A DNA stretch of 64,000 nt from Acidobacteriota bacterium (GCA_965263035.1 OZ253580.1:1920001-1984000); one strand, 5' to 3'; shown: positions 23,160-41,660, numbered from the stretch's first letter. Notes: generated by a model from the sequence alone, not told the origin. Numbers and translations are program-made.

Positions 23160-23327
23160 AGCGAGCGGCATCCCTCGTCCTTCCATCCTCATTGTTCAGG
23201 ACGCTCCGATTCGTCTCGATCCCCAACGGCGGGAAAAGGGGACCCGGCGGAAGAAGGGGACTGTGACCTTCTCTACTGTCGCAGCGTACGGCTATGAGCG
23301 TAGCCAACCGTCCTGTGTACTATCCTC

Positions 23328-23795
23328 GTGACTATGGAGATCCGTCCCGCAGCACTATCCGATCTCGATACCGTCGTTGAATTCAACGCGCGTCTGGCGC
23401 AGGAATCGGAAGGAGTACATTTGGACAAGGACCGACTGAGAGCGGGGGTCGCTACGCTGTTGCGTGACGAGTCACTGGGCCTTTACTTCATAGCGGAGTC
23501 AGAGTCCGGCCCGGCCGGGCAGCTGGCGCTGACATACGAATGGAGCGACTGGAGGAACGGCATGTTCTGGTGGCTTCAAAGTGTCTACGTGCGCCCGGAA
23601 TTCCGCCGCAAAGGGGTTCTGCGCGCTCTCTACGGCCACGTTCTGGAGATGGCGAAGGACCGCAGCGTGTGCGGGATCCGACTGTACGTCGAGAAGGAAA
23701 ACCTCACTGCTCAAGAGGCGTACCGACAGCTGGGAATGGCCCGGGCAGTGTTTCACATGTACGAAGTTGATTTCGTGATCGCCCGAGAGCACTAA
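23328..23795 (+). CDS. GNAT family N-acetyltransferase
   Basis: TYEWSDWRNG, QSVYVRPEFRRKGV and RLYVEKEN. Confidence 0.92.
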   Translation: MTMEIRPAALSDLDTVVEFNARLAQESEGVHLDKDRLRAGVATLLRDESLGLYFIAESESGPAGQLALTYEWSDWRNGMFWWLQSVYVRPEFRRKGVLRALYGHVLEMAKDRSVCGIRLYVEKENLTAQEAYRQLGMARAVFHMYEVDFVIAREH

Positions 23796-23967
23796 GTCGT
23801 GACTCGATGGACGAAGTGAAGTAGGCGGACGCCGCAAGAGCGCCTCCCACAGTTTCACTGCGGCATTTCCATACGCACCTTCACGACACATAAGGAATCA
23901 GCTGTGACAAAGGAGAAGGGGAGGGTTACCTTCTCTACGAGTTTGACCACCACAGCGGCCCCACGGG

Positions 23968-25273
23968 TCATTCCCCCCTTCGTATCACCGGCACGCCGCC
24001 AGACGGTGCAAATGTAATGCCCCGTCGCACCACCCGAACCGGATGGCGCGGGTCCGGCCGCAGGGTCACGCGAGTCAACACGCGGGCCAGTACGATCTTC
24101 ATCTCATAGCTGGCGAGCGCCGCGCCGAGGCAGTGCCGCACTCCACCACCAAACGGAAAAAATCTATAGGGATCGACTCGCCGCCCCACAAATCGGGCCG
24201 GATTGAACAACTCCGGCTCGGACCACAGTTCGGGGCGCCGGTGAGTGAGGTAGATGCATGGAGTGGCGACACTGCCCGCCGGCAGCTCGTAGTCTCCAAT
24301 ACACATGTCCGTTTCAAGATGACGGACGACAATGGGCACGACTGGGTTGAGGCGCGCCGTCTCTTTGATGACGGCGTCCAGATATCTGAGTTCGCCGATT
24401 TGCTCTGCTGTCAGCTTGGATGTATGAGGCCCGTTTCCGCTCACCGATGCCACCTCGGCTTGCGCGGTTGCCAGCACGTTCGGGTTTTGCAACAGATGGT
24501 GAATCACCCAGGCCATCGAGGTGGCGGCGGTTTCATGACCGGCTACGAGTACCGTCATCAATTCATCCCGAATCTCCTCATTGCTCATGGGCCGACCGTC
24601 GTCGTAGCGCGCGGCGACGAGCATGGCCACAATGTCGTTCCGCTCTTCCTGCTTTGACTCTTTGCGACGGGCTATCTCGTGGTACAACAATCGATCGATA
24701 CGGCGAAGTTGAGTCACGCGTTTCCAGAACGTGAGCGGTCCCCAGTTGAAGTTCATCCAGCGGATCAACAGCGTTCGCAGACGCGACAGCAGCGCAGCAT
24801 CATGGACGCCGAAAACGATGCGCAGGATAGCGTCCAGGGTGATGTTCTGCAGGCGCGGGTGAAGTCGGAAAAGACATTCCGACCGGCCAGGCATCGATCG
24901 ATCGATCGGCCATTTCACACATGATGTCGCCGTAGAGCCGGAGGCGCTCGCCGTGAAACGGCGGCAGGAGCAGCTTTCGCTCGCGCTGGTGTCGAGCACC
25001 GTCGAGCAGCAGTATCGAGTTGGGGCCCACGAGCGGTTTGAAAATCCTCTTTTGGGCCTGCCCGGCCCGCAGGTGTTCGGGGTCGCCGGTGAAAACTTGC
25101 TTGATGGCTGCCGGGTCGGTGAAAAATACCATCGGCGGAAGGCCGATCAGGCGAATGGTGAAGGCGTCGCCATAAGCCTCGGCACATGCCCGCATGAATG
25201 GGATGGGACGGAAGATCCAGTTGTACGTCTGCAAGAGGCGCGGGACTTTCGGTCCAGGCGGCAACTCGGCCAT
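23968..25273 (-). pseudogene. Cytochrome P450, frameshifted near 24865
   Basis: N-half LPPGPK..LLPPFHGERL (24800..25273) and C-half AGHETA, ETAR, FFPFGGGVRHCLG (23968..24999) are in different frames. Removing one base gives ..SFPLHPRLQNITLD. Confidence 0.85.
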
Positions 25274-25380
25274 ATAACCAGTCTATCCCGCTTTTCCTAC
25301 CACTGGAGCAATCCGGTGAGCTTTTCGATGCTCGCAGGGACGACACCATGGGCGGCAGAAGGGGACAGTTACCTTCTCCT

Positions 25381-25620
25381 TTTTTTGACGCCCTGGTTGC
25401 CCGGCACGCCGCCGTGCTCGATCCCTTCCAGTCGGTGCGGGGAGTGCGGCATCCGTTCGGGCAAGGGTGGATCCCCGAGGTGAGGATCCGCCAGGCCCGG
25501 AAGGTTTTCGCCTACATCGAGGGGGCCGGGCTCATCGATGCGTCCATGGTCTCGCCCCCGTTCCGGGCTGGAGAGCGCCGCTTCATCTCACTGACCCATC
25601 GGCGGCTGTCGCCTCACGCC
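25381..25620 (+). pseudogene. Tyrosine recombinase fragment, apparently internally deleted
   Basis: FFDALVARHAAVLDPFQSVRGV..PEVRIRQARKVF is joined directly to AYIEGAGL..FRAG..LT. The AYIEGAGL segment is shared with the fragment at 34622. Confidence 0.6.
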
Positions 25621-26002
25621 AGACCACAGAGGGACATAAGGAGAAGGGGACAGTTACTTTCTCTACGAGTTTGTGGGGACTCCACCCAGGGAGCGGACTC
25701 GGAGCCGGCGCCCGAGCGAGTACAATTTCAACAGCGGATGAGATTCAAAGCGATCCTCAAACGCAGATGTCCACGATGTTTGCGTGGGCAGGTTTTCGCC
25801 TCGGCATTTCGTATGAGGCGGAACTGCGGTGTCTGCGACCTGAGATTCGAACGTCACGAACCAGGGTACTTTGTGGGTGCACTCTACTTCGCCTACGGAT
25901 TGGCGGTGCTGTTGGGCACTCCTCCTGCTGCCTATCTCTGGTGGCAGGGATTTTCGATAGAGGTTAACGCGCTTGTGATCACGGGAGAACTGATTATTTT
26001 AT

Positions 26003-26140
26003 GGGGCTTATATACCTAAGTGCCATTGGCATACAGTTCTGGCACCACGCTTTCCCCAACGAGATACGTTCCGGTGCCCAGGGCAAGAACCCCAGCCCTG
26101 AGAATGTTCAGGGCGGCATTGTGGTCCCTGTCCATTCCAA
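26003..26140 (-). ncRNA. Putative TnpB omega-RNA scaffold overlapping the tnpB 3' end (boundaries approximate)
   Basis: A near-identical nucleotide block is shared with 57160-57216, and a stem (26041-46/26073-78) co-varies between the two copies. Its position matches known TnpB guide-RNA loci. Confidence 0.55.
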
Positions 26141-27191
26141 GTCCGCAGGCCCTGCACCGGAAGGTTTCGCTCCGTCCTGGATCGTGGCGGGCGCCGCACC
26201 GGTGGCAGTCCTGCGATGTATATGCGGGATTCACTTCTACGAACTTCCGACCGGCCCATTCTGCCTTGTACTGGAGTTGATTCCGCAGAAGCCCCCATGA
26301 TTGCGTCATTATTTCTCGATTCAGCCCCTTCTTCTTCGAGCCCTTCGTCACCATCCCTTGGATGTTCAGTTTCTCCACAGCGATCAGACCGTGCTCACGA
26401 ATGATCCTGGTGGAGAGACGATGGCAGGCATTACGGTTTCGGACCGATTCCCGGTGACGGAGCCGAGATAGCTGTACGATCCGTTTCCGTCTGGTCTTGG
26501 AAATCTTCTTGCACCTGGAGACCTTTCTCTGCTGCTTTCGGATCTCCCCCCAGTCCCGTCGATTCCGTTCGATCCTCTCACCCGTGGACAGCACCGCTCG
26601 CTTGCGGACTCCCAGGTCGATCCCCACCGAAGACTCGCATTTCGGTAGCGGCGGCTTCTCCACCTCGTAGGTCAGGTCCACATACACCCGGTTCGGCTTG
26701 CGGACAATCCGCAACGCTTTCAACGGGCATCCGTCCGGCAACGGCCGGGAGGGAAATATCCGGATCGTCGGAAAGCCCTTGGGCCGGATGGCGTAGCCCC
26801 GAGCGCGCTTCTTCACCAGGGTCGCTTTGGGGTCGACGACGTCGATGGTCTCCATCCTCGCAATGGGCCGGAATCGAGGATACCCCGGCTTCTCCCCCGC
26901 CTTGCAGCGACGGAAGAACGCCTTGAAGGCCCGGTCCAACCGAACCAGCATCCCCCGCTCCGCCTTGACCGCCACTGACCCGAGCCCCTCCGGATCCTCC
27001 TTCCTTTTGGAGGTCAACCCCTTCATCTGATCGTACAGGGTCACGCCGCGTTGCTCGGATTCCCAGGCCGTCCTGTGTTCCTCCAGTGCAGCGTTGTACA
27101 GCCGATTCAGGATGGACCTCACCCCGTCCAACCGCCGGATTCCACCCTTGGACAGCTTGGCTCTGCACTGGATAGTTGCGTGGCCTTTCAT
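26016..27191 (-). CDS. tnpB: RNA-guided endonuclease TnpB
   Basis: RLYNAAL, KPGYPRF, RuvC motifs GIDLG / IAVEKL / DRDHNAALNI, YTSQDC and zinc finger CHRC..CRAC. Confidence 0.95.
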   Translation of the reverse strand: MKGHATIQCRAKLSKGGIRRLDGVRSILNRLYNAALEEHRTAWESEQRGVTLYDQMKGLTSKRKEDPEGLGSVAVKAERGMLVRLDRAFKAFFRRCKAGEKPGYPRFRPIARMETIDVVDPKATLVKKRARGYAIRPKGFPTIRIFPSRPLPDGCPLKALRIVRKPNRVYVDLTYEVEKPPLPKCESSVGIDLGVRKRAVLSTGERIERNRRDWGEIRKQQRKVSRCKKISKTRRKRIVQLSRLRHRESVRNRNACHRLSTRIIREHGLIAVEKLNIQGMVTKGSKKKGLNREIMTQSWGLLRNQLQYKAEWAGRKFVEVNPAYTSQDCHRCGARHDPGRSETFRCRACGLGMDRDHNAALNILRAGVLALGTGTYLVGESVVPELYANGT

Positions 27192-27484
27192 GGTAGGAAT
27201 TGTAAACCATCAGCCTGAATTCTCGGCACTTAGGCATATAATCCCCTATTTTATCTCCCTGGATCTTTCAGTACTCTCGAATCCTGTTCCTGCACTTGGA
27301 CCAGCTATTCGATCCCACCTAACTCGGGTGCGCTACTCAAGCTGCCCTACCAAGCTAGCCACGTCGCGGTAGCCCACAGACTCCCATCCACACGGGAGAA
27401 GGGGACAGTTACCTTCTCTACTTGGTGCAGATTGGTGCAGATTTGGTTTTAAAGGCAGCTTGGAGTCATGGCACGTTGTTTCAA

Positions 27485-28354
27485 TCATCGCCCCAGCGCC
27501 AACAGTCGGCGCACGAGTTGTTGACCTTCCAGAGATAGTCCTGGGGATACGGCTAGGTGTTGGGTTCTCGCGACTTGGTCACGGATGGAGCGCACGCGCG
27601 CCTCTGCGAATCCCCGGTCCAGCCCACATGGTGTCCGCTGCACCGCACGCTGCCACAGTTTCTGCACAACCACGAACACGTGCAGCGCGTGGAGCACACC
27701 CTGCACTTTCCGTTCGCAACTCCGCCATGGTGAGAAGGCGACCGTTTTCGCGCGGCCTGATTCGATAAGTTGAATCCGACGTTCAACCAACGACAGTTGC
27801 AAGTGCATCGTTTCGTGGACCAGCGCTTCCGCCGCCCGCTCGATCCTTACGCGAGTCTCGTGGTCTGGCAGGGAGAGGAACACAGAAAAAGGCAGGTTCG
27901 GCCGGCTGTAGCTGCAATCCACCTCGGGGGACGGTGCCTTGAGCAGGTGGACGCAACGCACCAACTGTCCGATGGAGGAGGACAACTCCGGCCAAACAGC
28001 ATGAACAAGGTGCCAAGCTTGTCGTAGGACGCCAATATCCGCCGAAACCGCATAGTCGTCGACTTCGCGCAACGAGAGACCCACAGCGTTAAACTCGGCG
28101 ACAGCTCGGGAGGGAAGGCACTCAAGCAGAACGAGGCCGCCCTTCGCTCCCACTGGCGAGTCGACCTTTCCAACGATCCGCCTCGCTTCGTTGGCGGATC
28201 GCGTCATCATGCGCACCGTGCCGTAGGACTCGAAGTCGAGACCAAGCGGACCCAGGAAGTCGGTGACACCGATCTGGCGCAGTGTCGCAGGCAGGGCCGC
28301 CGTCCAGTAAACGGGATGCAGCAGAATGTCTTCTACAGGATGAACAGCACCCAC
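27485..28354 (-). CDS. aKG-HExxH family peptide-modifying enzyme (putative beta-hydroxylase)
   Basis: SYSRPNLPFSVF, EALVHETMHLQL, FSPWR..R..GVLHALHVF; last gene of the RiPP operon. Confidence 0.85.
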   Translation of the reverse strand: MGAVHPVEDILLHPVYWTAALPATLRQIGVTDFLGPLGLDFESYGTVRMMTRSANEARRIVGKVDSPVGAKGGLVLLECLPSRAVAEFNAVGLSLREVDDYAVSADIGVLRQAWHLVHAVWPELSSSIGQLVRCVHLLKAPSPEVDCSYSRPNLPFSVFLSLPDHETRVRIERAAEALVHETMHLQLSLVERRIQLIESGRAKTVAFSPWRSCERKVQGVLHALHVFVVVQKLWQRAVQRTPCGLDRGFAEARVRSIRDQVARTQHLAVSPGLSLEGQQLVRRLLALGR

Positions 28355-28363
28355 GGTAGGCTA

Positions 28364-28951
28364 CTATCTATCGACTGCATGAAACGAATACACGATGGAG
28401 TATCGCTCACCACGGACTACCTCGCTAACTGCATGATGCGAGCGGTGAGATATCTCGAAGATCAAGGCTTGTTTCGACGCCGGTGCGAGAACCACCCGCA
28501 CATCTTCAGGTTCACGGCCACCGAAGAGCAGCAAGTGACCACCGTCGCCAGCAGCCCAGCCACGATTCAACTGCAATATCAGGCGATGGGTCTCGCCCCC
28601 CTCGAGATAGTCGTCGTGGATCCGAATACGCTGCCCTGCCGTGAGTCGATGGGCTATCATGTCGACGGTCGTCCGGAGTCTCCTCTGGAACAGTTCCGAA
28701 ATCAGCTCACGCATCGCGGCAAAGGTCATGTCGGTGGCCAATTGCGCGATGTCGGAGGGCAACTCTATGTTGCGCATGTCGAATTCGTGTTGAGAATAGA
28801 ATGATTCCTCCGTGAGATTCCACGGAGCTGCACGCTCGAACCACGACAAGGTGGCCTGCTCGACGTCGCTGCGCAAAACTTTCGGCACGACGGAAAACGG
28901 AAAGGGATCCGTTTCGAGGCGGGCACTCGACAAGTCAACAACGGGTCGCAT
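28364..28951 (-). CDS. yhhC: 2OG-Fe(II) oxygenase, YhhC-like RiPP tailoring enzyme
   Basis: FYSQHEF, IRIHDD, ETHRLILQLN, SHHAVSEV and RYSIVYSF; its start overlaps the rSAM gene stop. Confidence 0.85.
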   Translation of the reverse strand: MRPVVDLSSARLETDPFPFSVVPKVLRSDVEQATLSWFERAAPWNLTEESFYSQHEFDMRNIELPSDIAQLATDMTFAAMRELISELFQRRLRTTVDMIAHRLTAGQRIRIHDDYLEGGETHRLILQLNRGWAAGDGGHLLLFGGREPEDVRVVLAPASKQALIFEISHRSHHAVSEVVRGERYSIVYSFHAVDR

Positions 28952-30087
28952 CAGCCTGGAAGGTGAGCGTCCAGGTATCGCCGAACGTGTGAAATCAGAA
29001 ACAGGTGATCAGTGCAGTACACCGAAGGGTTGTCGAAACCCCGTTCGTCGCTCCAACGGTATAGCGGCATCCCTCCGCCACAAACCGAAAGTTCTGGGCA
29101 ATGTAGGCACTGCCTGGCGGTAGGCTGCTGCATCTCGGCATGCTCTCGAAAGGCGGCTGTCCGCGCGATTTCCTGCAATGAATGAGAATGGACTGACCAC
29201 GGTTCATTGTACCGATCTGCGCCGTCGGATGTACTCTTGAGCGTGTCGTTCTTCGTGACAGTCCCATCGGTATCGATTATAAGGATCGCGTGCAAATCTT
29301 GTCCCATCCCCTCCTTCGTTGCCGATCCTCCGAGCAAAAGTTTCACCAAATCATCCAGCACGCGGATCGGTACCGGATCGGGGTCACTCATGTAGACATC
29401 GAAAAGGCCCGCGAGCCATGCCCCTGCCTTGTGCGAATCGAATCCAGTCTTTCCCGGCGGCAGCCGCGAGTGGTTCCCGTCGGGCAAAAGAAAGCTCATC
29501 CCGGGTACACCGAGCCCTCGCAGGAACCAGTAGACTTCGCTGGGATCGCTCGACGGTTCGACGACGCTCAGCGTGCCCGAAAACAACTGTTCGACGGCCG
29601 GGTGCCGTTGCAAGCGACGAATGCCGTCGAGCGTGACCTCGAAGGTCCCTCGCTGATCGAATCGCACGCGGCGAGAATCGTTGATCTTCGCCGGTCCGTC
29701 GAGGCTCACCGAAACCGTGGCGCCGCTGTCCGCAAGAATGTCCAGCCGCCGGTCACTGAGGAGTGTCCCGTTCGTCTGCACCGACAGGGTGCACCCCACG
29801 GGAAGGCAGGTTCGGAGCCCCGTCAGCAACCGTGTCAGCAGTGCTTCTCCTAGCAGCAGTGGCTCGCCGCCGTGAAGTACGACGGCAAAGTCGCGATCTT
29901 GCGCCTGCCGCAATTCGTCGAGACGACGGACTATCGCATCGATCGTCGACTTTGACATGGCGGGCGGCTGACGTCGCCACCCTTGGTCACCCAGCTGGTA
30001 AACGTAACAATAACTGCACGCGATGTTGCAGCGGCTGGCCGTCTTCAGCAGGACGGTGTCGATGGAGACAGTTTTGCCGCCCGACAT
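28951..30087 (-). CDS. yhhB: Cyclophane-forming radical SAM/SPASM peptide maturase, YhhB-like
   Basis: LKTASRCNIACSYCYVY, LHGGEPLL, QTNG, VSLDGP and SPASM CLHC..CGGG..NPSVYC. Confidence 0.92.
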   Translation of the reverse strand: MSGGKTVSIDTVLLKTASRCNIACSYCYVYQLGDQGWRRQPPAMSKSTIDAIVRRLDELRQAQDRDFAVVLHGGEPLLLGEALLTRLLTGLRTCLPVGCTLSVQTNGTLLSDRRLDILADSGATVSVSLDGPAKINDSRRVRFDQRGTFEVTLDGIRRLQRHPAVEQLFSGTLSVVEPSSDPSEVYWFLRGLGVPGMSFLLPDGNHSRLPPGKTGFDSHKAGAWLAGLFDVYMSDPDPVPIRVLDDLVKLLLGGSATKEGMGQDLHAILIIDTDGTVTKNDTLKSTSDGADRYNEPWSVHSHSLQEIARTAAFREHAEMQQPTARQCLHCPELSVCGGGMPLYRWSDERGFDNPSVYCTDHLFLISHVRRYLDAHLPG

Positions 30088-30097
30088 GGCGTCCCGT

Positions 30098-30322
30098 TCA
30101 TCGATTGTGCCGGTTGTGCACGCGGTCGTATAGGGTTGTGAATGAGGACTCTGCCGTCGCTTCCATGCGCACCTCCTCCACGAGTCGACGAAGCGCTGGG
30201 CTCAACTCGGCGCCGGCGGGAATATCAAGTCGGCCCTCAACGAGGGCATTCTCCAAAGATCTCGAGGTAGTCAACGACTCTTGCATCTTCATGGCTGCGC
30301 TCCATGCATTTTTTGATGTCAT
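30098..30322 (-). CDS. yhhA: Triceptide RiPP precursor, YhhA-like
   Basis: Leader SPALRRLVEEVR and core ..LYDRVHNRHNR* (YxRxHxRHxR); lies 10 bp upstream of the rSAM gene. Confidence 0.9.
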   Translation of the reverse strand: MTSKNAWSAAMKMQESLTTSRSLENALVEGRLDIPAGAELSPALRRLVEEVRMEATAESSFTTLYDRVHNRHNR

Positions 30323-30461
30323 ATGTTGGACAAGCTTCTACTCTACCACCAAATCAACCGATGATCCATCATGACCGCCCGTAAATCATTGAAAAAAAAG
30401 ATCGATTATCTATAAAGTGTGTCCTAAGTTACTTACAATAAACGATTGCTATTTTCCATTA

Positions 30462-34025: not shown

Positions 34026-34149
34026 TCAGTCAATTTCGAACGTTACTGAAGTGCGGACGGAGTTGGCGATGAAGCACTCTTTGTGTGCAAGTTCGTGGAT
34101 CTTCTCCAACCCTTCCGGAGATGGAGGCAGGGATCCAAAGGAGACCTTG
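34026..34149 (-). pseudogene. 3' fragment of an OsmC-family gene
   Basis: Homologous to 40930-41053; similarity stops just before the hairpin repeat at 34158. Confidence 0.8.
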
Positions 34150-34183
34150 AGAAGCGGGAGAAGGGGACAGTCACCTTCTCCAG

Positions 34184-34552
34184 GAGGCTGTCCGAGAACA
34201 GAACTGTCACCGACGCTCCCAAATCTCGGGGGATCTGATCATCAGGAGAGTGTCGGATGCCCCCCGGGTTCAAGGCCTACCCGCAAGATTACTATCAGAG
34301 TCAGCAGTTTCCGGCCGACGTATTCGACTTGTTGCCGGAGGATCACAAGTGTTTCCTCTACCGGGATCTGTTCCGGCAGCTGGACACGACGGAAGTGGAC
34401 GCCCAGTACAGCTCCCAGGGTCAGCGGGCCTACGCGCCCCGGCAGATCGGCTCGATATTGATCTACGCTTACAGCCACGGGGTGTTCAGTTCCCGACAGA
34501 TCGAGCGGCGTTGCCGGGAGGATCTGGGGTTCCCGTACATCGCGGGTAAGAA
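34184..34552 (+). mobile_element. Truncated IS1182-family element (left end plus transposase N-terminus)
   Basis: GAGGCTGTCC end; ORF from 34257 LLPEDH..AYAPRQ..LIYAYSHGVFSSRQIERRCREDLGF, cut at the repeat at 34556. Confidence 0.8.
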
Positions 34553-34621
34553 CGGGAGAGGGGGACAGTTACCTTCTCTACGCCGTCCCCACTTGCTCCA
34601 TAGCCGATCCTGGGGACTCTG

Positions 34622-34972
34622 CTGCTGGCCTCCATCGAGACCACCCACGTCATCGGTCTTCGCGACCGGGCCGTCCTGGGGACCCTGATCTACACGGGCG
34701 GCCGCGTCGGAGCCATCACCCGGCTGCGGATCCAGGATCTGCGCGACCAGGGCAACCAGCGCTCGCTTCTGTTTGCCGAGAAGAACGGCAAAGCCCGGGA
34801 GACCCCCGTGCGCCATGATCTGGACCGATGGCTCACGGCCTACATCGAAGGGGCCGGGCTCAGCGCCGCGCCCAAGGGGTCGGTGAAGTTTCGGGCCGGA
34901 CTGCGGCGCTGCAGCTCCCTCACCGATCGGCCGATGTCTCCCCATCCCGTTCTTCACGCTGCCGATCCATAA
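34622..34972 (+). pseudogene. Tyrosine recombinase internal fragment
   Basis: Manual translation: LLASIETTHVIGLRDRAVLGTLIYTGGRVGAITRL..EKNGKARETPVRHDL..AYIEGAGL. It has the catalytic Arg region but no HxxR or Tyr. Confidence 0.8.
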
Positions 34973-35009
34973 CTTCTGATTATATCTCGGGCTCCATCCC
35001 GGAGTTCAT

Positions 35010-36677
35010 CTACTCATCTTCGTCTGAAGCGTCGCTATCAGCAATGGTCGCTGCCGTCCGCTCCGTCGGCAGCTTTACGTTCTGTGCTCTCATAAATGTC
35101 CGCTCACCATCTATTAGGGTCTCCAGCCGATCTCGGATTAGACCCGCTCGGTCGCCGTTTCGTAACAAATGGACTGCTTCCGCTGGGAAGCCGTGTCTCG
35201 GTAGTAGCTCCATCAGAACGTCGTCACTCAAGTCAGCCAGGGCGCCGAACGCTTGACCAACGTGGCCACTGTCGAGGAACATGCGATTCGCGGGGCTACT
35301 AAAAAGTTCCCCGATTATCCGCGAGCTGGAAAACACATATCCCACAGCCTTAGTTCCTAAGGTAGAAAGCAGCTGACCCGGATCGAGGTTGCCCTCACCA
35401 CTAAGCGCACGAGGCTGAAGCGACGCAAGGTAGAGCAAAAAGGCACGTACGCGGGCGCTTCGACCATCGAAGCGATCGGGAAACGGCCGAGCCGGTGCGT
35501 CGAAGTCTACAACTCTGAACCCAGTCCCCTTGCCCCTAGCAAGGTTTCGGATCTCGCTCAACGCTTGAGTAGCTTGCGCAGTGTTGACTCCTCCAAACCA
35601 GCCGGTGAATGACGTCACCCAGAACCAGCGGTTCAGCAACTTGACCACTTCGGCGGACGGCGTTGGGCACCACCGGAAAAACTCACCGAGCAGCACAAGC
35701 TGGAGCCCATAGGGCAGCAATCGATCGGATGTAACGCCCAGGTCCTTGAGAAAGATCAGCGCACCTCTGATTCCTTTCGCCGCGATGTCGAAGGCTTCTG
35801 GAAGCTTCGTCCGGACCTCCGGCTTGACCATGAGGTCCGCCCAGTCTTTCGCGTAGATATCTCGGTCGAGGGCTGCAAGCACCGACCTGAGAAGGAGGAC
35901 ACGATCGAGATTGCCAAACCCCTTTCTGTCGAGCTCTTCCTTGAACTCGTCCAGCTTCTCGGCAAGATGGAACTCCCCTTCTCGGTAGGTCAGCGCGGAG
36001 ACCATCTCGTCGGCCGTCATCTTGCGCCCCTTGCGGTTGAGTCGGGCGAAGACTGTGACGGCACTGTCGAGGTCCGCCTCGCGGATATGAATAAGCGGGA
36101 GCTGATAGTCTCGAAACGCGTTCGCGAGGCGATCTGCTTCGTTGATCCAGCGTAGTATCCGCATGTCGGAAACTCCCGATTCGATGATGCGGCGGCACGC
36201 GGTAAAGAATCCGGCGGTGTTGAGCAGGCTCCCCACCGGGAAATGCTGTGGCTCGACCCCACCCGTGGGTGATCGGAGGAACTCCTGGTTTTCGAGGTCG
36301 CAGTACACGCGCCAGTCAACTTGATCCACGATCGATTCCGCCTTTTCAGGTAACCGCAGCGTGCCTACGAGGGTCGACACGCGCTGCTGACCGTCGAGCA
36401 GGTAGCCAACGAGCCCATCCGGGCGAGGACTGATGTCGATCGGCCCGACGCGCTGGTTGGTCTCGATAGTTTCCTCTGTGTCCCAGACGAGGATAGAGCC
36501 GATCGGAAAACCGCGCAAAACGCTGTCGAGCAACGCGTGCAGGTCTGGTTGCTTCCACACGAAAGCACGTTGGAACCTCGGCACGCGGATTTTTCCAGCC
36601 GCTATGCGTTCCACGAGTTTGCCCAGAAAAACAACTTCTGGGACGACCTCTGTGCGAGCCTGCCTACCGTTGGACAT
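35010..36677 (-). CDS. DUF262 (GmrS/ParB-like) domain protein
   Basis: VPRFQRAFVW, LLDSVLRGFPIGSILVW, LLDGQQR and VFARLNRKG. Confidence 0.9.
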   Translation of the reverse strand: MSNGRQARTEVVPEVVFLGKLVERIAAGKIRVPRFQRAFVWKQPDLHALLDSVLRGFPIGSILVWDTEETIETNQRVGPIDISPRPDGLVGYLLDGQQRVSTLVGTLRLPEKAESIVDQVDWRVYCDLENQEFLRSPTGGVEPQHFPVGSLLNTAGFFTACRRIIESGVSDMRILRWINEADRLANAFRDYQLPLIHIREADLDSAVTVFARLNRKGRKMTADEMVSALTYREGEFHLAEKLDEFKEELDRKGFGNLDRVLLLRSVLAALDRDIYAKDWADLMVKPEVRTKLPEAFDIAAKGIRGALIFLKDLGVTSDRLLPYGLQLVLLGEFFRWCPTPSAEVVKLLNRWFWVTSFTGWFGGVNTAQATQALSEIRNLARGKGTGFRVVDFDAPARPFPDRFDGRSARVRAFLLYLASLQPRALSGEGNLDPGQLLSTLGTKAVGYVFSSSRIIGELFSSPANRMFLDSGHVGQAFGALADLSDDVLMELLPRHGFPAEAVHLLRNGDRAGLIRDRLETLIDGERTFMRAQNVKLPTERTAATIADSDASDEDE

Positions 36678-36681
36678 GACG

Positions 36682-37644
36682 CTAGACTTCCTTCCGAATC
36701 AGGGAGATGCCACGCTCAAGGTCACCTTGTCCGCGGCTAAGAAGTTCAATCTTGGCCTGCACGTTGCAGAGATTCCAGCACTTGTACACATTCCGTCCAA
36801 ACCCACTAGAGAGGAGCGTTTGGACGGCCGAGCACAGTCCCTGAAACAGTGTCTTCTCAATCGCAGAGGGCGTTTCGGGCAAGCCATGCTTCATGTCGAA
36901 GAAGTTCTTCTGATCGTCGTTGAGACTGTCCCATGCTTCAACCAACCGGCCATGGTCTGCGCCTGCGTTCTCCCGCTCACTGAGGAGGATTCGCGGGAGG
37001 TAGTTCTCGGCCTCCCGTTTGGCCAGAACCCAGCAGGACAGACCCAGCTTCCCGCATACATGACGCAACCTTCGAGCTGTTGCGCTGCTCGTAGCGGCGG
37101 GATCCTTCCTGCCGCTATCGATGATGGCCACCAACCGTGGGCGAAACGGGATCCCCTGCACCCGACGTTTGATCTCCTCCAGCATTTGTCCCTGGCCGCC
37201 CAAGCTGTCAATTCGGATAGGATCTCCATTCTGATTCCACAGGCGAAAAAGGGCTTTGTCGAGCTCCTTCACGACGCGCTTCACGAACGCACCATCACTG
37301 ATCCGATTCTCGACCAGAATCACGAACGGTTCCTCGGCAAGGCGGGTAGCGTTCTCTGGCTCAAGTTCATCCGCAGCAGCTGGATGTGCCGTTACGCGTA
37401 CGCGTCTCCCGTGCGGGGCCAAGGTCCAGGCACTACGCCGGATCGATGCGACGAGTAATTGGCGCACCCAATCGCCTTGGGTTCCACGGTCACCAATCCA
37501 CGTCGTGGCCTGGAAGGCATTGGGATCCAACTGACACGTTGTGTCCCACACGTGCCAGCCATCTTCGATCTTGTACAGAATACGATCCAACCAGCTGTGG
37601 GCATCCGGATCATTCGCTGCGCTGAAGTCGATCTCGATGCGCAT
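36682..37644 (-). CDS. Hypothetical protein with TOPRIM-like (OLD/AriB-like) motifs
   Basis: ILVENRISD, LGGQG, AIIDSG and KREAENYLP; 4-5 bp spacing from both neighbours. Confidence 0.65.
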   Translation of the reverse strand: MRIEIDFSAANDPDAHSWLDRILYKIEDGWHVWDTTCQLDPNAFQATTWIGDRGTQGDWVRQLLVASIRRSAWTLAPHGRRVRVTAHPAAADELEPENATRLAEEPFVILVENRISDGAFVKRVVKELDKALFRLWNQNGDPIRIDSLGGQGQMLEEIKRRVQGIPFRPRLVAIIDSGRKDPAATSSATARRLRHVCGKLGLSCWVLAKREAENYLPRILLSERENAGADHGRLVEAWDSLNDDQKNFFDMKHGLPETPSAIEKTLFQGLCSAVQTLLSSGFGRNVYKCWNLCNVQAKIELLSRGQGDLERGISLIRKEV

Positions 37645-37649
37645 CGAGT

Positions 37650-38882
37650 TTATCCCGCTGGCCGAGCGGCGCGCCGAATGGCCAGGATCTCCTCATAGTC
37701 CTCGATGAAGACGCCATCCGGCCAGCTGTCCAATTCACCACTCTCGCTCATTCTGATTTTCCGCAGAATTGATCCACGCCCTGGCTCCGTGCGAATCCAG
37801 TAAACAATGATATTTTCGGCCGGCAGTCGCCCCTCCGCAATCCAGCGTCTCGCGCGGAGTAGGAACATCTCCGAGTGAGTCTCGACGACCAGAGGCCGGG
37901 CGGGTCCTGCGAGGTTATCGAGCAAAAGCTCCGCGATATCCGCGTGGGCTGCTGGATGGAGCTCAGCCTCCGGATGCTCGATGATGTCGACACCCGGCCC
38001 TGCCTTGCGGGCCGTCAGTGCCGTCACCACGACCGGCAGAACCTGCGAGAGCCCCTGGCCCGATTGCACGAGTCGCACGTTGGCGTCGCGGGCCGGCGCT
38101 CCAACCACTAGTTCAGAGTAGATGCCCTGCGCCACAACATCGATACTCACCCCGAAGGTCCTGCGATACCATTCCCGAACGGATTTCCTCAGCTCATCGT
38201 CCGCCGCCAGCGCCAGGGGCGTATCCTGCCCGTTCGGCCCAAGAACCCTAGGCGAGTGTTCTACCCTGGTGAACGGCGACGCGAGAAGGCTACGTGGGCA
38301 CTGCAAATAGCGAACGCCGCGGGCCCAAGCTCTGAGGGCATCGACTTGCGCACCGGCCCAGTTCGCAAGATTGTCCGGATGGCCGGGGATCAGCCCTCGC
38401 CAACCGATCTGCCGCGGGGCCTGCTCTGCTCCCGAGACACAAACTTGGTAGGGGGATCGTTCGTCGAACCCTTGCCGTTGCACCACGATCTCATCGCCGC
38501 CTCTCCTGAGGCTCCAGTGCGAAATCTGGCGCTCGGATGGCCGGGCCGGCGCTACCACATTCCGAACGGTGGCCGAGAACGATAACTCGCTGCTCCCGTC
38601 CGCCAGGCCGGCGGACAATCTCAGCCGACCATGCACGGTGCGCCCGGTCACTAAGTCCTCGAACGTCTCCCCGTGGCGGATTCCACCAGACTCCAGCGGA
38701 AGCGGCTCCGAGGTGTCCTCCCCTAAAGGGGCCAAGCCGCCCGCTAACAACTGAATCACCTGAGCCAGAGCCGTTTTACCCGAATTATTGGATCCCACCA
38801 GGATGGTCAGAGGAGCGAGTTCCACCTTGGCCAACTCAGCGTAGCCCTTATAACGTTCGACACTGAACTCTCGGAGTTCCAT
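37650..38882 (-). CDS. ABC/AAA ATPase with DUF3696-like C-terminus
   Basis: ATG 38882; GSNNSGKT, GQGLSQVLP, IIEHPEAELHP, VETHSE and WPDGVF. Confidence 0.9.
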   Translation of the reverse strand: MELREFSVERYKGYAELAKVELAPLTILVGSNNSGKTALAQVIQLLAGGLAPLGEDTSEPLPLESGGIRHGETFEDLVTGRTVHGRLRLSAGLADGSSELSFSATVRNVVAPARPSERQISHWSLRRGGDEIVVQRQGFDERSPYQVCVSGAEQAPRQIGWRGLIPGHPDNLANWAGAQVDALRAWARGVRYLQCPRSLLASPFTRVEHSPRVLGPNGQDTPLALAADDELRKSVREWYRRTFGVSIDVVAQGIYSELVVGAPARDANVRLVQSGQGLSQVLPVVVTALTARKAGPGVDIIEHPEAELHPAAHADIAELLLDNLAGPARPLVVETHSEMFLLRARRWIAEGRLPAENIIVYWIRTEPGRGSILRKIRMSESGELDSWPDGVFIEDYEEILAIRRAARPAG

Positions 38883-39102
38883 TGCCGAATTACCATAGCA
38901 ACTCGTGGCAGAAGGGGCCAACTGTAAGGTGTCGGCTGTCGCCGCGTTTGTCACGCAGAACGGAAGAGGGAGAAGGGGACAGTTACCTTCTCTACTCGCG
39001 CTCGAATCCTGTTCCTGCACTTGGACCAGCTTTTCGATCCCACGTAACTCGGGTGCGCTACTCAAGCCTCCCTACCAAGCTAGCCACGTCACGGTAGTCC
39101 AC

Positions 39103-39989
39103 TCCTGGGACTGAAGACCATCTACCCGAAGCCGAGAACCAGCACGGCCCGGCCGGAACACCGCGTCTACCCCTATCTGCTCCGGGGCCTGAAGATCGAC
39201 GAACCCCATCAGGTCTGGTGCGCGGACATCACGTATATCCCGGTCTACAAAGGGTATTTGTACCTGGTGGCGGTGATGGACCGGGCCAGTCGGTACGTAC
39301 TGTCGTGGCGGTTGTCCAACACCCTGGACAGCGAGTTCTGTGTCGAGGCTTTGGAAAGGGCGCTCTCCCAAGGGGTCCCGACGATCTTCAACACGGATCA
39401 GGGGGCGCAGTTGACGAGCCGGGTGTTCACCGAGCGGGTGCAGGCGTCCGGGGCGCGGTGCTCGATGGACGGTCGCGGTCGTTGCCTGGACAACGTGTTC
39501 ATCGAACGGCTGTGGCGGTCGCTGAAGTACGAAGCCGTGTACCTGCGGGAACTGGTGGACGGATTCGAGGCGTCACGGGTGATCGGGGAGTGGATGGAGT
39601 TCTACAACGGGGAGCGGCCGCACTCGGCGCTGGGTGGGCGGACCCCACGGGAAGCTCACCACGGGAGGGAGGCAGCGTGAAGTCGGGACACCGGAGCTCC
39701 GGATACGCCCTGGGGAGCGTCGAGTCAAGCCTCCGGCTCCTCCGCCTCGCTGCGGCCCTTCGGGTGACTCGACGCTCCCCAGGGCGTGAAGATCTGTCAT
39801 GGCCGGAAGGGGACTTCCGGCCCTCTCGGACCGGAAACGACCACTTACATCACCACAACCAAGCGGCAAGCTGGCGTCGCTCGGCGGCGCCATGTCCCCT
39901 GGATTTGAGGGCGGAATTTCACTATCGGAGTCTACTTTTCCCTACCTTAATTTGGCCCTCAAATGGTCCAACGAACCAGGACCGCCTCA
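39103..39989 (+). mobile_element. IS3-family remnant (OrfB integrase core plus right end)
   Basis: VWCADITYI, YLVAVMD, FNTDQGAQ, DNVFIERLWRSLKYE and YNGERPHSAL; ends ..GGACCGCCTCA. The 5' half is missing. Confidence 0.88.
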
Positions 39990-40303
39990 GGGCAGTTATC
40001 TTCTCTCTTCCTCGTCCGATGACTGGAAGCCTGAAAACGCCCGGAAAGACACGCTGTCACCAGAGCCGGACTTGGCCGGCCCTCTTCTCGGCCCGTTCCC
40101 GCTAGCGCGCTTGGCTCCTCACATACGCGAGGAACGCATGGGACCGATCGGCTGGTCGATCCGTGAGAATGCCATAGCGGCGACCGTATACCGTCCGCGC
40201 CGCCCGCAGTGGCTGATGAAGACGGCAGATGTTGTACTCGACGGCGCATGGTACGGGTATGGACACCGGTTGAGCCGTCTCCTGGAATCGTAAAAAATGG
40301 GCC

Positions 40304-40807
40304 ATGATGACCGACTACCTCATCCGGCCTGAGACGGACGGCGACCGGGAGGGAATCACAGGGCTTCTGCTCGCGGCTTTCCCCACTTCCTCCGAAGCCC
40401 GCCTCGTGCAGCGACTCCGCAAGGACGGCGATGTCGTGTTCTCGCTGGTCGCCGTGGAGGCTTCGGATGTCATCGGCCATGCCCTTTTCTCAAGACTGCG
40501 CGCACCGGACGCGGCGCTCTCCCTGGCGCCGGCCGCAGTCGCGGCAAACCGCCGCCGCCGGGGGATTGCCGCCGCAATGATCGAGGCTGGACTTGAACGG
40601 GCAAGGGCGGAGTGCTGGGCGGCAGGCGTCGTGCTTGGCGATCCGTCCTATTACCGGCGCTTCGGTTTTAGCCGGAAGGCTGTGCGGGGCATGTCATGCC
40701 GATATGCCGGGCCGGGTCTGATGGGCCTCGCCCTCTCCGGGGACGGCCTGGACGGACCGCGTATCGAACATGCGTCCGCCTTCTCATCGATCCGGGATTC
40801 CAACTGA
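40304..40807 (+). CDS. GNAT family N-acetyltransferase (duplicate of 33400..33903)
   Basis: Identical 167-aa translation. Confidence 0.88.
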   Translation: MMTDYLIRPETDGDREGITGLLLAAFPTSSEARLVQRLRKDGDVVFSLVAVEASDVIGHALFSRLRAPDAALSLAPAAVAANRRRRGIAAAMIEAGLERARAECWAAGVVLGDPSYYRRFGFSRKAVRGMSCRYAGPGLMGLALSGDGLDGPRIEHASAFSSIRDSN

Positions 40808-40929
40808 GACACTGCCCTCGGGTGAGAATGCCGACCGCGTACCGCAACCGGGAATTTGCGGTGGATCTTGCCCATCCGCCCCAGAGCGGTAGAGTCCTCG
40901 TCAAGTTGACCCCAGGTTTGTCAAATCCC

Positions 40930-41376
40930 TCAGTCGATCTCGAACGTTACTGAAGTGCGGACGGAGTTGGCGATGAAACACTCCTTGTGTGCAAGTTCGT
41001 GGATCTTCTCCAACCCTTCGGGAGATGGTGGCAGGGATCCAAAGGAGACCTTGGGATGGAGAACCACACGAGTCACGGCCAACTTCCCATCCGCGTTCTT
41101 CTCCAGGAATCCTACCGCTGCATCCTGGTAGCGATCCACGACCAGCCGCTTTCGAGCAGCGATCGCGAGAAAGGTGAGCATATGACAACTCGCGAGTGAC
41201 GCAACATATGCCTTTTCGGGATCGACCAGGTTCGGATTCCCAAAGAAGGCGGGCGCTGCGGACGCACTGACTCGAACCCCACCCTCAAACTTCCAAGTGT
41301 GATCGCGGGAGTAGGACCGGTACTTGAATTCGACAGAGCCCCTTTCCCATTCCACTGTCGCGTGATGCTCCGACAT
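40930..41376 (-). CDS. OsmC/Ohr family protein
   Basis: YSRDHTW, VDPEKAYVASLASCHMLTFL and AHKECFIANSV (two Cys). ATG 41376. Confidence 0.92.
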   Translation of the reverse strand: MSEHHATVEWERGSVEFKYRSYSRDHTWKFEGGVRVSASAAPAFFGNPNLVDPEKAYVASLASCHMLTFLAIAARKRLVVDRYQDAAVGFLEKNADGKLAVTRVVLHPKVSFGSLPPSPEGLEKIHELAHKECFIANSVRTSVTFEID

Positions 41377-41660
41377 GTCTCGATTCCTCTGATCTGTGGT
41401 GAAATTACCTTTCCCGTCCTCCACGGCCGATTTCGGCTGGGAGCCCCACAAGACGACCCCTCTTCAAACGCGATGACAAATGCGAGGCTAAGGCCCTATA
41501 CCCTACTCCCTTGCCCCGACCGAGATCGCCGATCGCAGGCCTCGTCATGCACTCGATTATTTCGTGGACCCAGCTTGACTGAAATCGCGTGGTGCAGTCG
41601 CCAAGTCCCGACTCGCCGCCGCGCTTGAAGCCCTGGAACATCCGGCGCATCATGATCGCC

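Follow-up and report, generated by a model that had tools for sequence, protein, structure and literature searches.

What kind of sequence element separates the unrelated genes of an 18-kb island in which one short repeat recurs on a single strand? The question arises from a stretch of 64,000 nucleotides (the window) from the genome of an Acidobacteriota bacterium, an uncultured soil organism. A preliminary description of the window read the interval as an integron-like cassette island built on 11 co-oriented hairpin sites and proposed that it captures and shuffles stress and defence genes. All of these sites indeed lie on the + strand (23251-40005): ten are full copies of GAGAAGGGGACAGTYACCTTCTC, and the one at 39990 is only a half copy, truncated by an insertion sequence (IS). 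Searching with the previously quoted 26-mer at up to 3 mismatches returned nine + strand matches (starting at 23251, 23913, 25641, 27396, 32898, 33079, 34158, 34556 and 38970) against 0.00 expected from 100 shuffles; repeat family D3 contributes the copy at 25353-25388, which brings the total of full copies to 10, and a position-weight scan of the rest of the window (~46 kb) gave no further copy at >=18 bits. The island and its flanks are laid out below, where G numbers denote the genomes compared and G000 is this genome.

22065-23159, +: MalK-like ABC ATPase, conserved left flank, syntenic in 8/8 same-genus genomes
23251-23276, +: repeat copy 1 (AAGAAGGGGACTGTGACCTTCTCTAC), 25.8 bits
23328-23795, +: GNAT acetyltransferase, GNAT1
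23913-23938, +: repeat copy 2, 24.2 bits
23968-25273, -: cytochrome P450 in two overlapping frames, frameshift near 24864
25356-25381, +: repeat copy 3, without the CTAC tail, 30.8 bits
25390-25629, +: tyrosine-recombinase fragment, 326-aa family
25641-25666, +: repeat copy 4, left border of the DUF983 unit
25739-27320, +: DUF983 gene, interrupted by a TnpB IS (Pfam DUF983 on the intact G007 orthologue)
26000-27246, -: TnpB-only IS, IS200/IS605 family, 1247 bp
27396-27421, +: repeat copy 5, right border of the DUF983 unit, 35.0 bits
27485-30087, -: unknown gene, 2OG-Fe(II) oxygenase and radical-SAM gene
30462-32653, -: Septu defence pair PtuB and PtuA (258 and 457 bits)
32898-32923, +: repeat copy 6, fused to a DUF983 3' tail
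33079-33104, +: repeat copy 7 (family D1), start of the 1064-bp duplicated block 33086-34149
33168-33903, +: small ORF and GNAT2, first copy
34036-34149, -: OsmC 3' fragment
34158-34183, +: repeat copy 8 (GTCAC variant), truncating OsmC and leaving its 3' fragment, 36.3 bits
34257-34555, +: IS1182-family transposase head (DUF772)
34556-34581, +: repeat copy 9, junction of the IS1182 (DUF772) head and an integrase middle fragment
34604-34969, +: tyrosine-recombinase middle fragment
34947-38958, -: PDC-M55 C/B/A candidate defence module, 4 kb, 99% identical to the G007 copy
38970-38995, +: repeat copy 10 (family D2), same sequence as copy 6 including the DUF983 tail
39103-39989, +: IS3-family element, 3' part (rve)
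39990-40005, +: half repeat, 3' half only (GGGCAGTTATCTTCTC), cut by the IS3-family fragment
39990-41451: second small ORF and GNAT2 (40304-40807, +) and complete OsmC (40930-41451, -)
41589-44873, +: DUF7133/HEAT/cytochrome c protein, conserved right flank, syntenic in 8/8 same-genus genomes

The repeat has a conserved 9-bp centre between two inverted arms of 7 bp each, and consensus copies carry the 7-bp stem ascribed to them earlier (GAGAAGG/CCTTCTC). Its predicted hairpin is only modestly stable: the commonest copy folds at -5.6 kcal/mol (z -1.3), and the strongest, at 34158, reaches -9.1 kcal/mol (z -2.8). Stem covariation did not rise above column shuffles, and Rfam held no match to the repeat. 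Copies 2 and 4 have ~40 nt in common when their flanks are counted. Most of the cargo had been named correctly (GNAT, P450, two integrase fragments, DUF983, DUF772/IS1182, IS3 rve, GNAT with OsmC), with the TnpB-only IS that splits DUF983 overlooked; the repeat is no part of that element. What had been described as HNH plus ATPase is the Septu pair in full (PtuA/PtuB), what was called a "DUF262 operon" is PDC-M55, a candidate defence module with all of A/B/C present, and the "RiPP" genes encode the radical-SAM enzyme and the 2OG oxygenase, the RiPP label being putative. The supposedly separate GNAT/OsmC cassettes turned out to be one segmental duplication (33086-34149 and 39990-41053), and one inter-repeat unit belongs to a 6.9-kb segmental duplication. 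Several "cassettes" amount to pieces of genes, IS remnants or a single large duplication; the genes between repeats run in either direction, the GC3 of the island is below that of its flanks, and the right end (...CA) of the IS3-family fragment adjoins the half repeat at 39990.

One comparison is with chromosomal integrons and with attC clusters that lack an integrase. Like these, the island has polar arrays of a short hairpin-capable site, small accessory genes (toxin-antitoxin, GNATs, defence) separated by the sites, and a hypervariable locus between conserved flanks; unlike them, it has no IntI, a ~26-nt site without R/L boxes, genes in both directions, multi-gene modules and gene fragments, and many arrays per genome. 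The lack of intI and of attC R-boxes had been recognised at the outset, and both points stand: TIGR02249 scores at most 78.7 bits in the genome, where the cut-off is 265, and the sites do not resemble attC. The island is thereby ruled out as an integron, and "integron-like" is an analogy only.

The motif is a genus-wide extragenic repeat. This genome holds 130 copies at >=18 bits once both-strand doubles are merged (157 raw matches, against 3 in a reversed-genome control), and crude gene calls, which take up 83% of the genome, contain just 25 of the 130. Far from being scattered in random orientation, the copies are clustered and locally co-oriented: 91/130 (70%) lie in 16 arrays, 84% have a neighbour within 10 kb (34% under random placement), and 69 of 84 adjacent pairs point the same way (p = 2e-9). 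Orientation is independent of the neighbouring genes (63/130 and 54/130) and of the replichores, and tandem copies are spaced 20-70 bp apart. The sequence 3' of the core differs between array copies, of which the ...AGTYAC type accounts for 89/130, and the copies beside transposase genes (...AGTCTR, 15/130); CTAC follows 12/130 copies. Each of the eight same-genus genomes carries the motif (28-109 copies), and other genera of the order have 0-5 copies. In G297, of the same class, 23 exact copies of the 14-mer core sit inside long terminator-like hairpins followed by T runs, with the look of bidirectional terminators.

Comparison among species places the repeat where gene content changes. The locus is syntenic in 8/8 species, with an insert that ranges from 1.2 kb (without a repeat) to 39 kb; in G001 it is filled by GNAT2 and OsmC alone. 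Of 55 homology breakpoints, 28 have a repeat within 60 bp in one genome or the other; counting the window's repeats alone, random island positions come that close 8.5% of the time. Inter-species breakpoints do map to the motif. We also took 17 loci from relatives: collinearity with this genome holds on both sides of 2/45 repeats (4%) and of 293/537 controls drawn from the same accessory loci (55%). Among low-copy duplicated segments, 16/152 end within 20 bp of a repeat against 3.2% by chance, a modest, threefold enrichment. The repeat-DUF983-repeat unit has at least four different pairs of left and right neighbours (G000, G002/G003, G006, G007), with homology beginning at the repeat (copy 4 for the G006 and G007 units). 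At two core loci devoid of the repeat, GNAT1 and DUF983 are inserted or absent as single genes in G001, G004 and G005, and GNAT1 occupies such a locus in all three; in the G000 lineage both genes lie between array repeats and are missing from those two loci. The 4-kb PDC-M55 module has been exchanged between species, its G007 copy not being bounded by repeats, and the distance from repeat to gene varies among species for the same gene. Public contigs yielded only repeat-induced joints with sides of <30 letters.

The suggestion that the motif is linked to REP-associated tyrosine transposases (RAYTs) was right in substance, since the core GGGGACAG fits the GGGGWSAS of the repeats of TIRYT/RAYT-like genes. 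A multi-copy RAYT-fold gene, surrounded by inverted repeats with the same core, co-occurs with the motif across genomes. It encodes 311 aa and is present in 4 copies in this genome and in 6-11 in 7/8 sister species. The protein scores 29.5 bits with Pfam Y1_Tnp (cut-off 23), aligns with positions 3-145 of 146 of NF047646 ("REP-associated tyrosine transposase"), and shows no variation in its HUH motif and tyrosine among 15 homologues. By fold, its AF2 model (pLDDT 85) matches 4ER8 best (E 6e-6), the E. coli RAYT in complex with a REP hairpin, and next IS200, ISDra2 and IS608 TnpA. In gene orientation, a core-bearing repeat lies 150-360 bp upstream of 4/4 copies in this genome, and inverted repeats lie downstream of at least three (800924, 1560685 and 5961195), as they do for 2/2 copies in G023 and, with an altered core, for the single copy in G009. 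Homologues of >=75% identity are found in all 9 genus genomes (1-11 copies each), motif-rich G023 has two (84%), and the set of relatives comprises 21 further genomes, with homologues of <=58% identity or none; in the 270-contig assembly of G297 no close homologue was found, the best reaching 39% identity over 75 residues.

Which known system does this resemble? The IS200/IS605 family, in which IS608 moves by peel-and-paste and non-autonomous derivatives are called PATEs, shares the Y1 HUH fold, by analogy probably the recognition of a hairpin on one strand, and same-strand, same-direction ends that match the geometry of the arrays; unlike it, the autonomous element here has inverted rather than direct ends, a protein of 311 rather than ~130-150 aa, and no conserved target tetranucleotide that we could identify. 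The REP/REPIN-RAYT systems (REPtrons), which Bertels and Rainey in 2011 and Ton-Hoang in 2012 are said to have described, share with this genome a short, high-copy, extragenic palindromic repeat, a cognate gene of RAYT fold between inverted copies of it, IS insertion into the repeat and, for the subfamily present in the window, a complementary-strand GTAG head. As far as the available parts of these sources go, classic RAYTs are single-copy and vertically inherited (Bertels 2017), unlike the multi-copy gene here, and classic REPs are arranged as inverted doublets or alternating BIMEs (Nunvar 2010), unlike these arrays, whose copies run head to tail and are separated by genes; the stem here is also weak, and few copies carry CTAC. 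The nearest match is the TIRtron, whose transposase (TIRYT) constitutes TnpA-REP subclass 2.1 (Quentin 2018). The accessible text of Di Nocera (2013, BMC Genomics 14:522) describes a GGGGWSAS motif in the flanking repeats, a TIRYT group specific to Acidobacteria, and repeat families that occur singly, as dimers and in clusters. The comparison is by description. The likeness extends to a Y1 HUH protein that is RAYT-like and exceeds the classic RAYTs in length, to its gene lying between inverted repeats with a fitting core, and to repeats that also occur away from the gene in all three arrangements; unlike TIRtrons as that text presents them are the multi-copy gene, the ~130 solo repeats, and the long same-direction arrays at hypervariable loci and synteny breakpoints. 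This organisation of the repeat (arrays, polarity, breakpoints) is unusual.

On balance, the motif is probably the REP-like, non-autonomous solo terminal repeat of an acidobacterial TIRtron, at whose copies an enzyme acting in trans may reshuffle genes. The TIRtron would be a multi-copy element that encodes the 311-aa RAYT-class transposase and is bounded by inverted repeats with a GGGGWSAS-type core (AAGGGGACAGT). Its solo copies would have multiplied to ~130 per genome and piled up extragenically, as same-direction arrays at a few hypervariable loci, on the borders of accessory modules (defence, toxin-antitoxin, GNATs, small unknown genes). The transposase most likely recognises the conserved core and the weak hairpin on one DNA strand and may nick or join at the core, which would seed new copies beside old ones in a fixed direction and turn copies into hot spots for deletion, duplication and insertion; such action is proposed to be why the arrays coincide with places of gene-content reshuffling. 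What we observe is the repeat with its clustering, polarity, extragenic and breakpoint positions and its association with the transposase gene; that the 311-aa protein works on copies in the arrays, and that these bring about the rearrangements instead of just marking them, is what we infer. Running counter to this are the difference 3' of the core, the weak hairpin without covariation, the G297 cores without a close enzyme homologue, the modest enrichment at duplicate ends, the PDC-M55 module that moved without repeats at its ends in G007, and classic RAYT hallmarks that are absent (a single vertical copy) or limited to a subfamily (the GTAG head).

A true cassette system would go further: the Y1 transposase would use consecutive same-strand repeats as IS200/IS605-like left and right ends, excise a single-stranded circle with one repeat and re-insert it beside another in a fixed direction, producing integron-like polar arrays of exchangeable gene units. 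We consider this unlikely. It would suit the polarity of arrays around unrelated genes, the repeats at synteny breakpoints, the several contexts of the DUF983 unit and the differing locations of GNAT1 and DUF983 among species, and the E. coli RAYT recognises REP and not its complement (Corneloup 2021, in the part available). However, we found neither a circle nor a pair of empty and filled sites sharing a fixed cut position, many units consist of gene fragments that meet at a repeat (IS1182 head to integrase middle; DUF983 tails), and the variable repeat-to-gene distances, the unit inside the 6.9-kb duplication and the recently exchanged PDC-M55 module all speak against it. The repeat could instead be a passive marker, an ordinary selfish REP-type element that survives in insertion-tolerant intergenic accessory DNA or arrives with imported DNA while IS, integrases or homologous recombination do the rearranging. 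Mobile debris fills the islands (TnpB IS, IS3, IS1182, integrase fragments), and the lower GC3 of the present island than of its flanks, the same variable distances and the merely threefold enrichment at duplicate boundaries point the same way; we nevertheless judge it quite improbable, given the contrast in collinearity between repeats and same-locus controls, a local co-orientation around unrelated genes that passive survival does not predict, and repeats sitting directly on junctions of two different truncated genes.

The inverted arms and 9-bp centre, the two integrase fragments in the island, and a full integrase copy at 5.547 Mb, where a 13-copy array starts with a repeat in place of the last 4 codons, would fit a tyrosine-recombinase site (integron-type or Xer/dif-module-type) of the 326-aa integrase family. 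This is very improbable and largely refuted by the distribution of that family, which is present in motif-poor G009, G010 and G013 and not found (E <= 1e-20) in motif-rich G023 and G297. Intact integrase copies moreover have their own conserved dif-like upstream sequence and no motif, IntI is lacking, and the motif is far shorter than attC and misfits the attC R' box (GTTRRRY). Least credible of all is a gene-expression signal (a terminator, mRNA-stabilising hairpin or operator of neighbouring genes): the motif is extragenic and related cores in G297 have long hairpins with T runs, but here the orientation ignores gene direction, no T run lies 3' of the weak stem, copies stand in close tandem, and Rfam gave no match.

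The gene-capture platform first envisaged has gained some circumstantial support from GNAT1 and DUF983, found elsewhere at repeat-free core loci; it stays hypothetical because several cassettes are fragments, IS debris or a duplication and neither excision nor circle nor insertion of an inter-motif unit was seen. The arrays mark the borders of swappable defence and stress genes at the most changeable loci of the genome, and the repeat may, as a hypothesis drawn from sequence, actively mobilise the cassettes between them.

Matched at three or fewer mismatches, the 26-nt hairpin motif of the preliminary description occurs nine times on the + strand between 23251 and 38995 (none expected, from 100 shuffles), and a repeat finder adds a further copy at 25353–25388. 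Of the 11 co-oriented sites that had been claimed, ten are full copies, all on the + strand; at 39990 only half a copy remains, an IS3-family fragment that carries an rve domain abutting its loop with the right end (…CA), and the DNA beyond this junction proceeds as in the copy at 33079. The remaining ~46 kb of the window holds no extra copy of at least 18 bits against a position-weight matrix built from the genome copies. The 7-bp stem is present as described, but it forms a weak hairpin, the commonest copy folding at −5.6 kcal/mol (z −1.3). Several of these repeats sit exactly where a truncated piece of one gene meets that of another, within an island bounded by two conserved genes.

Features of the island from its left to its right border, with window positions where assigned
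Left border, MalK-like ABC ATPase gene
GNAT acetyltransferase gene (GNAT1)
P450 gene, frameshifted
Integrase fragment, first of two
DUF983 gene, interrupted by a 1247-bp TnpB-only insertion sequence (IS; 26000–27246)
Radical-SAM/2OG-oxygenase group
Complete Septu pair (PtuA 457 bits, PtuB 258 bits)
DUF983 tail, following the Septu pair
Small ORF, a different acetyltransferase gene (GNAT2) and OsmC 3′ fragment, first copy
IS1182 head
Integrase fragment, second of two
34947–38958, complete PDC-M55 A/B/C candidate defence module
DUF983 tail, following the PDC-M55 module
IS3 3′ part, ending at 39989
Small ORF and GNAT2, second copy, then an intact OsmC gene
Right border, DUF7133/HEAT/cytochrome c gene

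The island genes are found on both strands, and the stretches 33086–34149 and 39990–41053 are a single 1064-bp duplication with a spacing of 6904 bp. The TnpB-only IS, of the IS200/IS605 family, has a second, 99.8% identical copy at 1,310,799–1,312,045 of the source genome (G000), which defines its boundaries; these exclude the motif, ruling out that the motif is an end of this IS. The sister species G007 carries at least 12 copies that are 96–98% identical, a greater likeness than that of the flanking core genes (92–93%), which suggests that the IS was exchanged recently between species. Of the four copies or fragments of the IS3-family element, two stop at or within the repeat (window 39989/39990; G000 ~56,715/56,720), a pattern that suggests repeat-targeted insertion; IS1397-type elements are known to insert into REPs. 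The P450 gene runs through two overlapping frames with a shift at ~24864, where a base is missing in the contigs of sequencing run X1; since runs X4, X5 and X7 match the window, the frameshift looks strain-specific rather than an assembly error.

The window (G000:C1:1920001–1984000) belongs to a genome of 6.2 Mb and 62% GC assembled as a single contig, across which the invariant part of the repeat is the 14-nt core AAGGGGACAGTCAC. Conservation is lower in the arms, the conserved unit measures ~26 nt and nothing is conserved outside positions −3 to +21. At a threshold of at least 18 bits there are 130 copies, 56 on the + and 74 on the − strand with both-strand doubles merged (157 raw hits, with 3 in the reversed genome as a control); 105 lie outside and 25 inside crude gene calls, which cover 83% of the genome. 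The copies are clustered and locally co-oriented, as the preliminary description had anticipated: 91 are grouped in 16 arrays of at least three, 84% have a neighbour within 10 kb (34% under random placement), and neighbouring pairs share an orientation in 69 of 84 cases (p = 2e-9), with 10/10 copies in one direction in the window, 13/13 at 5.55 Mb and 18/20 at 2.28–2.31 Mb. The repeats in this genus form polar arrays, not scattered doublets. Two simple rules for their orientation were ruled out: neighbouring genes are co-directional with the repeat in 63/130 cases on the 5′ side and 54/130 on the other, and both array directions occur on both replichores (skew minimum ~2.85 Mb, maximum ~5.8 Mb). 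Array copies read …AGTYAC… (89/130) and contain …AAGGGGACAGTYACCTTCTC…, while the repeats flanking the transposase gene described below read …AGTCTR… (15/130). All seven stem pairs are intact in only 32/130 copies, and stem covariation does not rise above column shuffles. A known RNA family was dropped as an explanation, as Rfam gave no match at E ≤ 1 over window positions 22500–42000. At several arrays, 3′ parts of nearby genes (hundreds of bp to 2.5 kb, 81–98% identical) have been copied with an edge within 20 bp of a repeat, for instance at G000 5,548,291–5,548,766, 5,557,156–5,557,359, 4,271,221–4,271,594 and 4,655,176–4,655,624.

Each of eight other genomes of the genus contains 28–109 copies, and other genera of the order 0–5 (0 in a reversed-pattern control). 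A sample of 401 genomes from the phylum shows the exact 14-mer to be frequent in just three places: this genus; G023, which belongs to a different family of the same order and has 18 copies; and G297, from another family of the class, with 23. In G297 the copies are inverted pairs forming the arms of long perfect hairpins bordered by A and T runs, and these look like bidirectional terminators.

The genes bordering the island are syntenic in all eight sister species, and the DNA between them differs greatly in extent.

Insert between the two flanking genes in each genome
G001, 1.2 kb, GNAT2 and OsmC only, no repeat
G004, 3.9 kb, one repeat
G005, 5 kb, repeats present
G003, 5.3 kb, repeats present
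G000 and G002, 18 kb, repeats present
G007, 39 kb, repeats present
G006 and G008, locus divided over two contigs

With the loci oriented like the window, 39 of their 42 repeats of at least 15 bits point in the same direction. GNAT1, DUF983, the radical-SAM–Septu block, GNAT2–OsmC and PDC-M55 are shared as modules in varying order and copy number. Breakpoints between relatives map to the repeats, as they should if the initial claim about the motif was right: 28 of 55 distinct homology breakpoints at the window locus lie within 60 bp of a repeat in either genome (8.5% of random island positions do, counting the window's repeats alone). In an independent test on 17 loci of relatives, the 245-bp stretches on both sides kept collinearity with G000 at 2/45 repeats, compared with 293/537 control positions taken from these loci at distances above 300 bp from every repeat. 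The arrays fall almost perfectly on the loci at which gene content varies among related species, and these loci hold complete anti-phage systems (Septu, PDC-M55) and toxin–antitoxin genes. One array of G002 (C1:230500–238500), between two core genes, contains three tandem 697-bp units of a repeat plus a HigA-like gene, repeat pairs merely 20–35 bp apart, and, directly behind a repeat, a copy of the final ~19 codons of the lipoprotein gene upstream.

When the ORFs in and around the 16 arrays were all compared with one another, a gene emerged whose 311-aa product is the candidate cognate enzyme of the repeat. It scores 29.5 bits against Pfam Y1_Tnp (cut-off 23) and 46.6 bits against the NCBIfam RAYT model NF047646, below the equivalog cut-off of 80 with nearly the whole length aligned. 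The HUH motif (H63-x-H65) and Y162 are invariant across 15 homologues. In a fold search, its AF2 model (pLDDT 85) matched best to 4ER8, the E. coli RAYT bound to a REP hairpin, followed by the IS200, ISDra2 and IS608 transposases; sequence searches of the PDB with the protein and with its profile gave nothing relevant. The ~130-aa C-terminal extension is helical in the model and has no Pfam domain at E ≤ 1. Database names of relatives are “REP element-mobilizing transposase RayT” or “transposase [Acidobacteriota bacterium]”. The gene is present in four copies in G000, in 6–11 copies in seven of the eight sister species (75–89% identity), in one copy in the fragmented assembly of G008 and in two in G023 (84%); other genomes of the order have homologues of at most 58% identity or none, and a search of G297 found no close homologue. 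A core-bearing repeat lies 150–360 bp upstream, in gene orientation, of all four G000 copies, three of which also have inverted downstream repeats, and homology between these copies begins and ends at the flanking repeats. Inverted-repeat flanks also occur at both G023 copies and at the single copy of the motif-poor relative G009, where the core is altered. The link to RAYT loci drawn in the preliminary description was right. Core-bearing repeats flank a Y1 HUH gene in both G000 and G023. One of the G000 elements is flanked by a 232-bp direct duplication of the adjoining DNA (800,299–800,530 and 802,198–802,429, 96% identity), which far exceeds the usual target duplication.

Two other enzymes were considered. 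A ~326-aa tyrosine-recombinase family has at least six full or nearly full copies in G000 and leaves fragments in the island.

Full or nearly full copies of the ~326-aa tyrosine recombinase in G000
2,087,354–2,088,337
5,655,986–5,656,966
3,683,181–3,684,164
2,913,447–2,914,424, diverged
5,708,243–5,709,223, diverged
5,547,290–5,548,265

The repeated unit is little beyond the gene itself; a dif-like sequence sits immediately before the start codon, as TACGATAAAGTATATTATACGTA in the four closest copies and as a related variant in the two diverged ones, and one copy heads the 5.548-Mb array. As cognate enzyme the family was rejected, since genomes poor in the motif have it while a search of G023 and G297, both rich in the motif, came up empty. 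G000 also has two classic RAYT genes of ~220 aa (2.483 and 3.478 Mb), but their homologues do not track the motif and the repeats at their flanks, also abundant, belong to another family (GGGGACATCCTTGTCCCC and GGGGGTTGAAAACCCCC); they too were rejected. This second REP family borders the RAYT gene at 3,477,700–3,478,480 and occurs genome-wide, with ~88 hits for GGGGACATCCTTGTCCCC at two or fewer mismatches and ~60 for TCGGGGGTTGAAAACCCCCGCTCC at three or fewer.

The locus has the appearance of an integron, as was originally proposed, but not the machinery. The absence of intI is borne out by the whole-genome search, whose best match to the integron integrase (TIGR02249-type) scores 78.7 bits against a cut-off of 265. 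An attC site has paired R″/L″ and L′/R′ boxes, with R′ = GTTRRRY, and spans 57–141 bp, whereas the candidate box of the repeat reads GTTACCT or GTCACCT in a unit of ~26 nt. Integron cassettes mostly hold one promoterless ORF co-oriented with the array; here genes lie on both strands and are about as often against the repeat as with it on its 5′ side. With no IntI in the genome and sites unlike attC, an integron was ruled out. IS200/IS605 elements, with direct subterminal hairpins at either end and a short TnpA, differ in turn from an autonomous element whose ends are inverted and whose protein has 311 residues. The REP–RAYT (REPtron) arrangement shares with our repeat the high-copy, extragenic, palindromic character, but RAYTs are typically single-copy (Bertels et al., 2017) and vertically inherited, unlike the multi-copy gene found here; the other-strand form of the GTAG conserved at the foot of REP hairpins, CTAC, comes after the stem in 7/9 window copies matching the 26-mer and in 12/130 genome-wide. 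RAYTs cleave single-stranded REP, not its complement, at CT/CA near the hairpin (Corneloup et al., 2021). The closest likeness is to the “TIRtrons” described by Di Nocera et al. (2013), in which a RAYT-like gene, encoding a “TIRYT”, is flanked by terminal inverted repeats, many sharing GGGGWSAS, whose families occur as singles, dimers and clusters. Our enzyme has the HUH motif, tyrosine and RAYT fold, its gene is flanked by inverted repeats, and GGGGACAG in these matches the GGGGWSAS consensus. The same authors define a sharply delimited Acidobacteria TIRYT group, which takes in K. versatilis, T. saanensis and others; TIRYTs of the phylum have been published for Koribacter, Terriglobus, Acidobacterium and Granulicella. 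TIRYTs form TnpA-REP subclass 2.1, with C-terminal HTH-type domains (HTH or DnaA-C-like; Quentin et al., 2018). The best reading of the repeat is as a REP-like solo copy of the terminal repeat of an acidobacterial TIRYT element that is itself multi-copy, and so belongs to a known but unstudied kind.

The arrays may themselves make gene-content hotspots, and one account of how they could do so is a hairpin-guided single-strand “cassette” system, independent of integrons, in which a RAYT-class Y1 enzyme moves inter-repeat DNA and recruits genes at ~16 hotspots per genome. The multi-copy transposase would excise DNA between two same-strand repeats, the excised DNA would be re-inserted beside another repeat in a fixed direction, and single core-locus genes together with whole defence systems would be drawn into polar, exchangeable arrays. 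In G001, G004 and G005, GNAT1 is a single-gene insert without a repeat between orthologues of G000 3.930–3.937 Mb, where G000 shows a clean absence; DUF983 in G001 lies, again without a repeat, between orthologues of G000 0.924 and 0.932 Mb; and in G000, G002, G003, G006 and G007 both genes are within the array, between repeats. These placements hint at gene recruitment and imply no direction; among five outgroup genomes searched for GNAT1, two have its right-flank gene alone.

Against so tidy a picture, the distance from repeat to gene varies between species for the same gene, and in G004 a 20-nt repeat takes the place of 14 nt of the G001 spacer with the flanks shared. The PDC-M55 module is 99% identical in G007 (its flanks 90–93%), yet has no repeat at either end there and different neighbours on both sides; G005 has a 78–79% identical version at another locus. 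The ends of low-copy duplicated segments fall no more than 20 bp from a repeat in only 16/152 cases, with 3.2% expected by chance. Four public sequencing runs (Logan contigs) compared with window positions 22500–42000 gave no usable joints, those between repeat positions having sides of 23–28 letters and being repeat-induced; run X1 contains a contig with a repeat 11 letters from the OsmC 3′ end and unrelated DNA upstream, and a weak joint (22-letter side) that skips the TnpB IS. We regard the cassette system, and with it active mobilisation of inter-repeat units, as rather unlikely.

REP/RAYT and TIRYT systems are known, and their effect on genome organisation is still debated; to our knowledge, the TIRYT branch has never been studied experimentally. 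The polar-array arrangement marking gene-content hotspots appears to be new. A full-text literature search turned up no account of repeats of this kind lined up in one direction at such hotspots. Should the enzyme act on the array copies, this genus would be a natural system in which to ask whether hotspots of defence and accessory genes are created by an HUH transposase together with its repeats, a functional parallel to integrons reached via different chemistry. If it is inactive on them, the arrays would still mark hypervariable loci of uncultured Acidobacteriota precisely and in a form that is easy to scan for.
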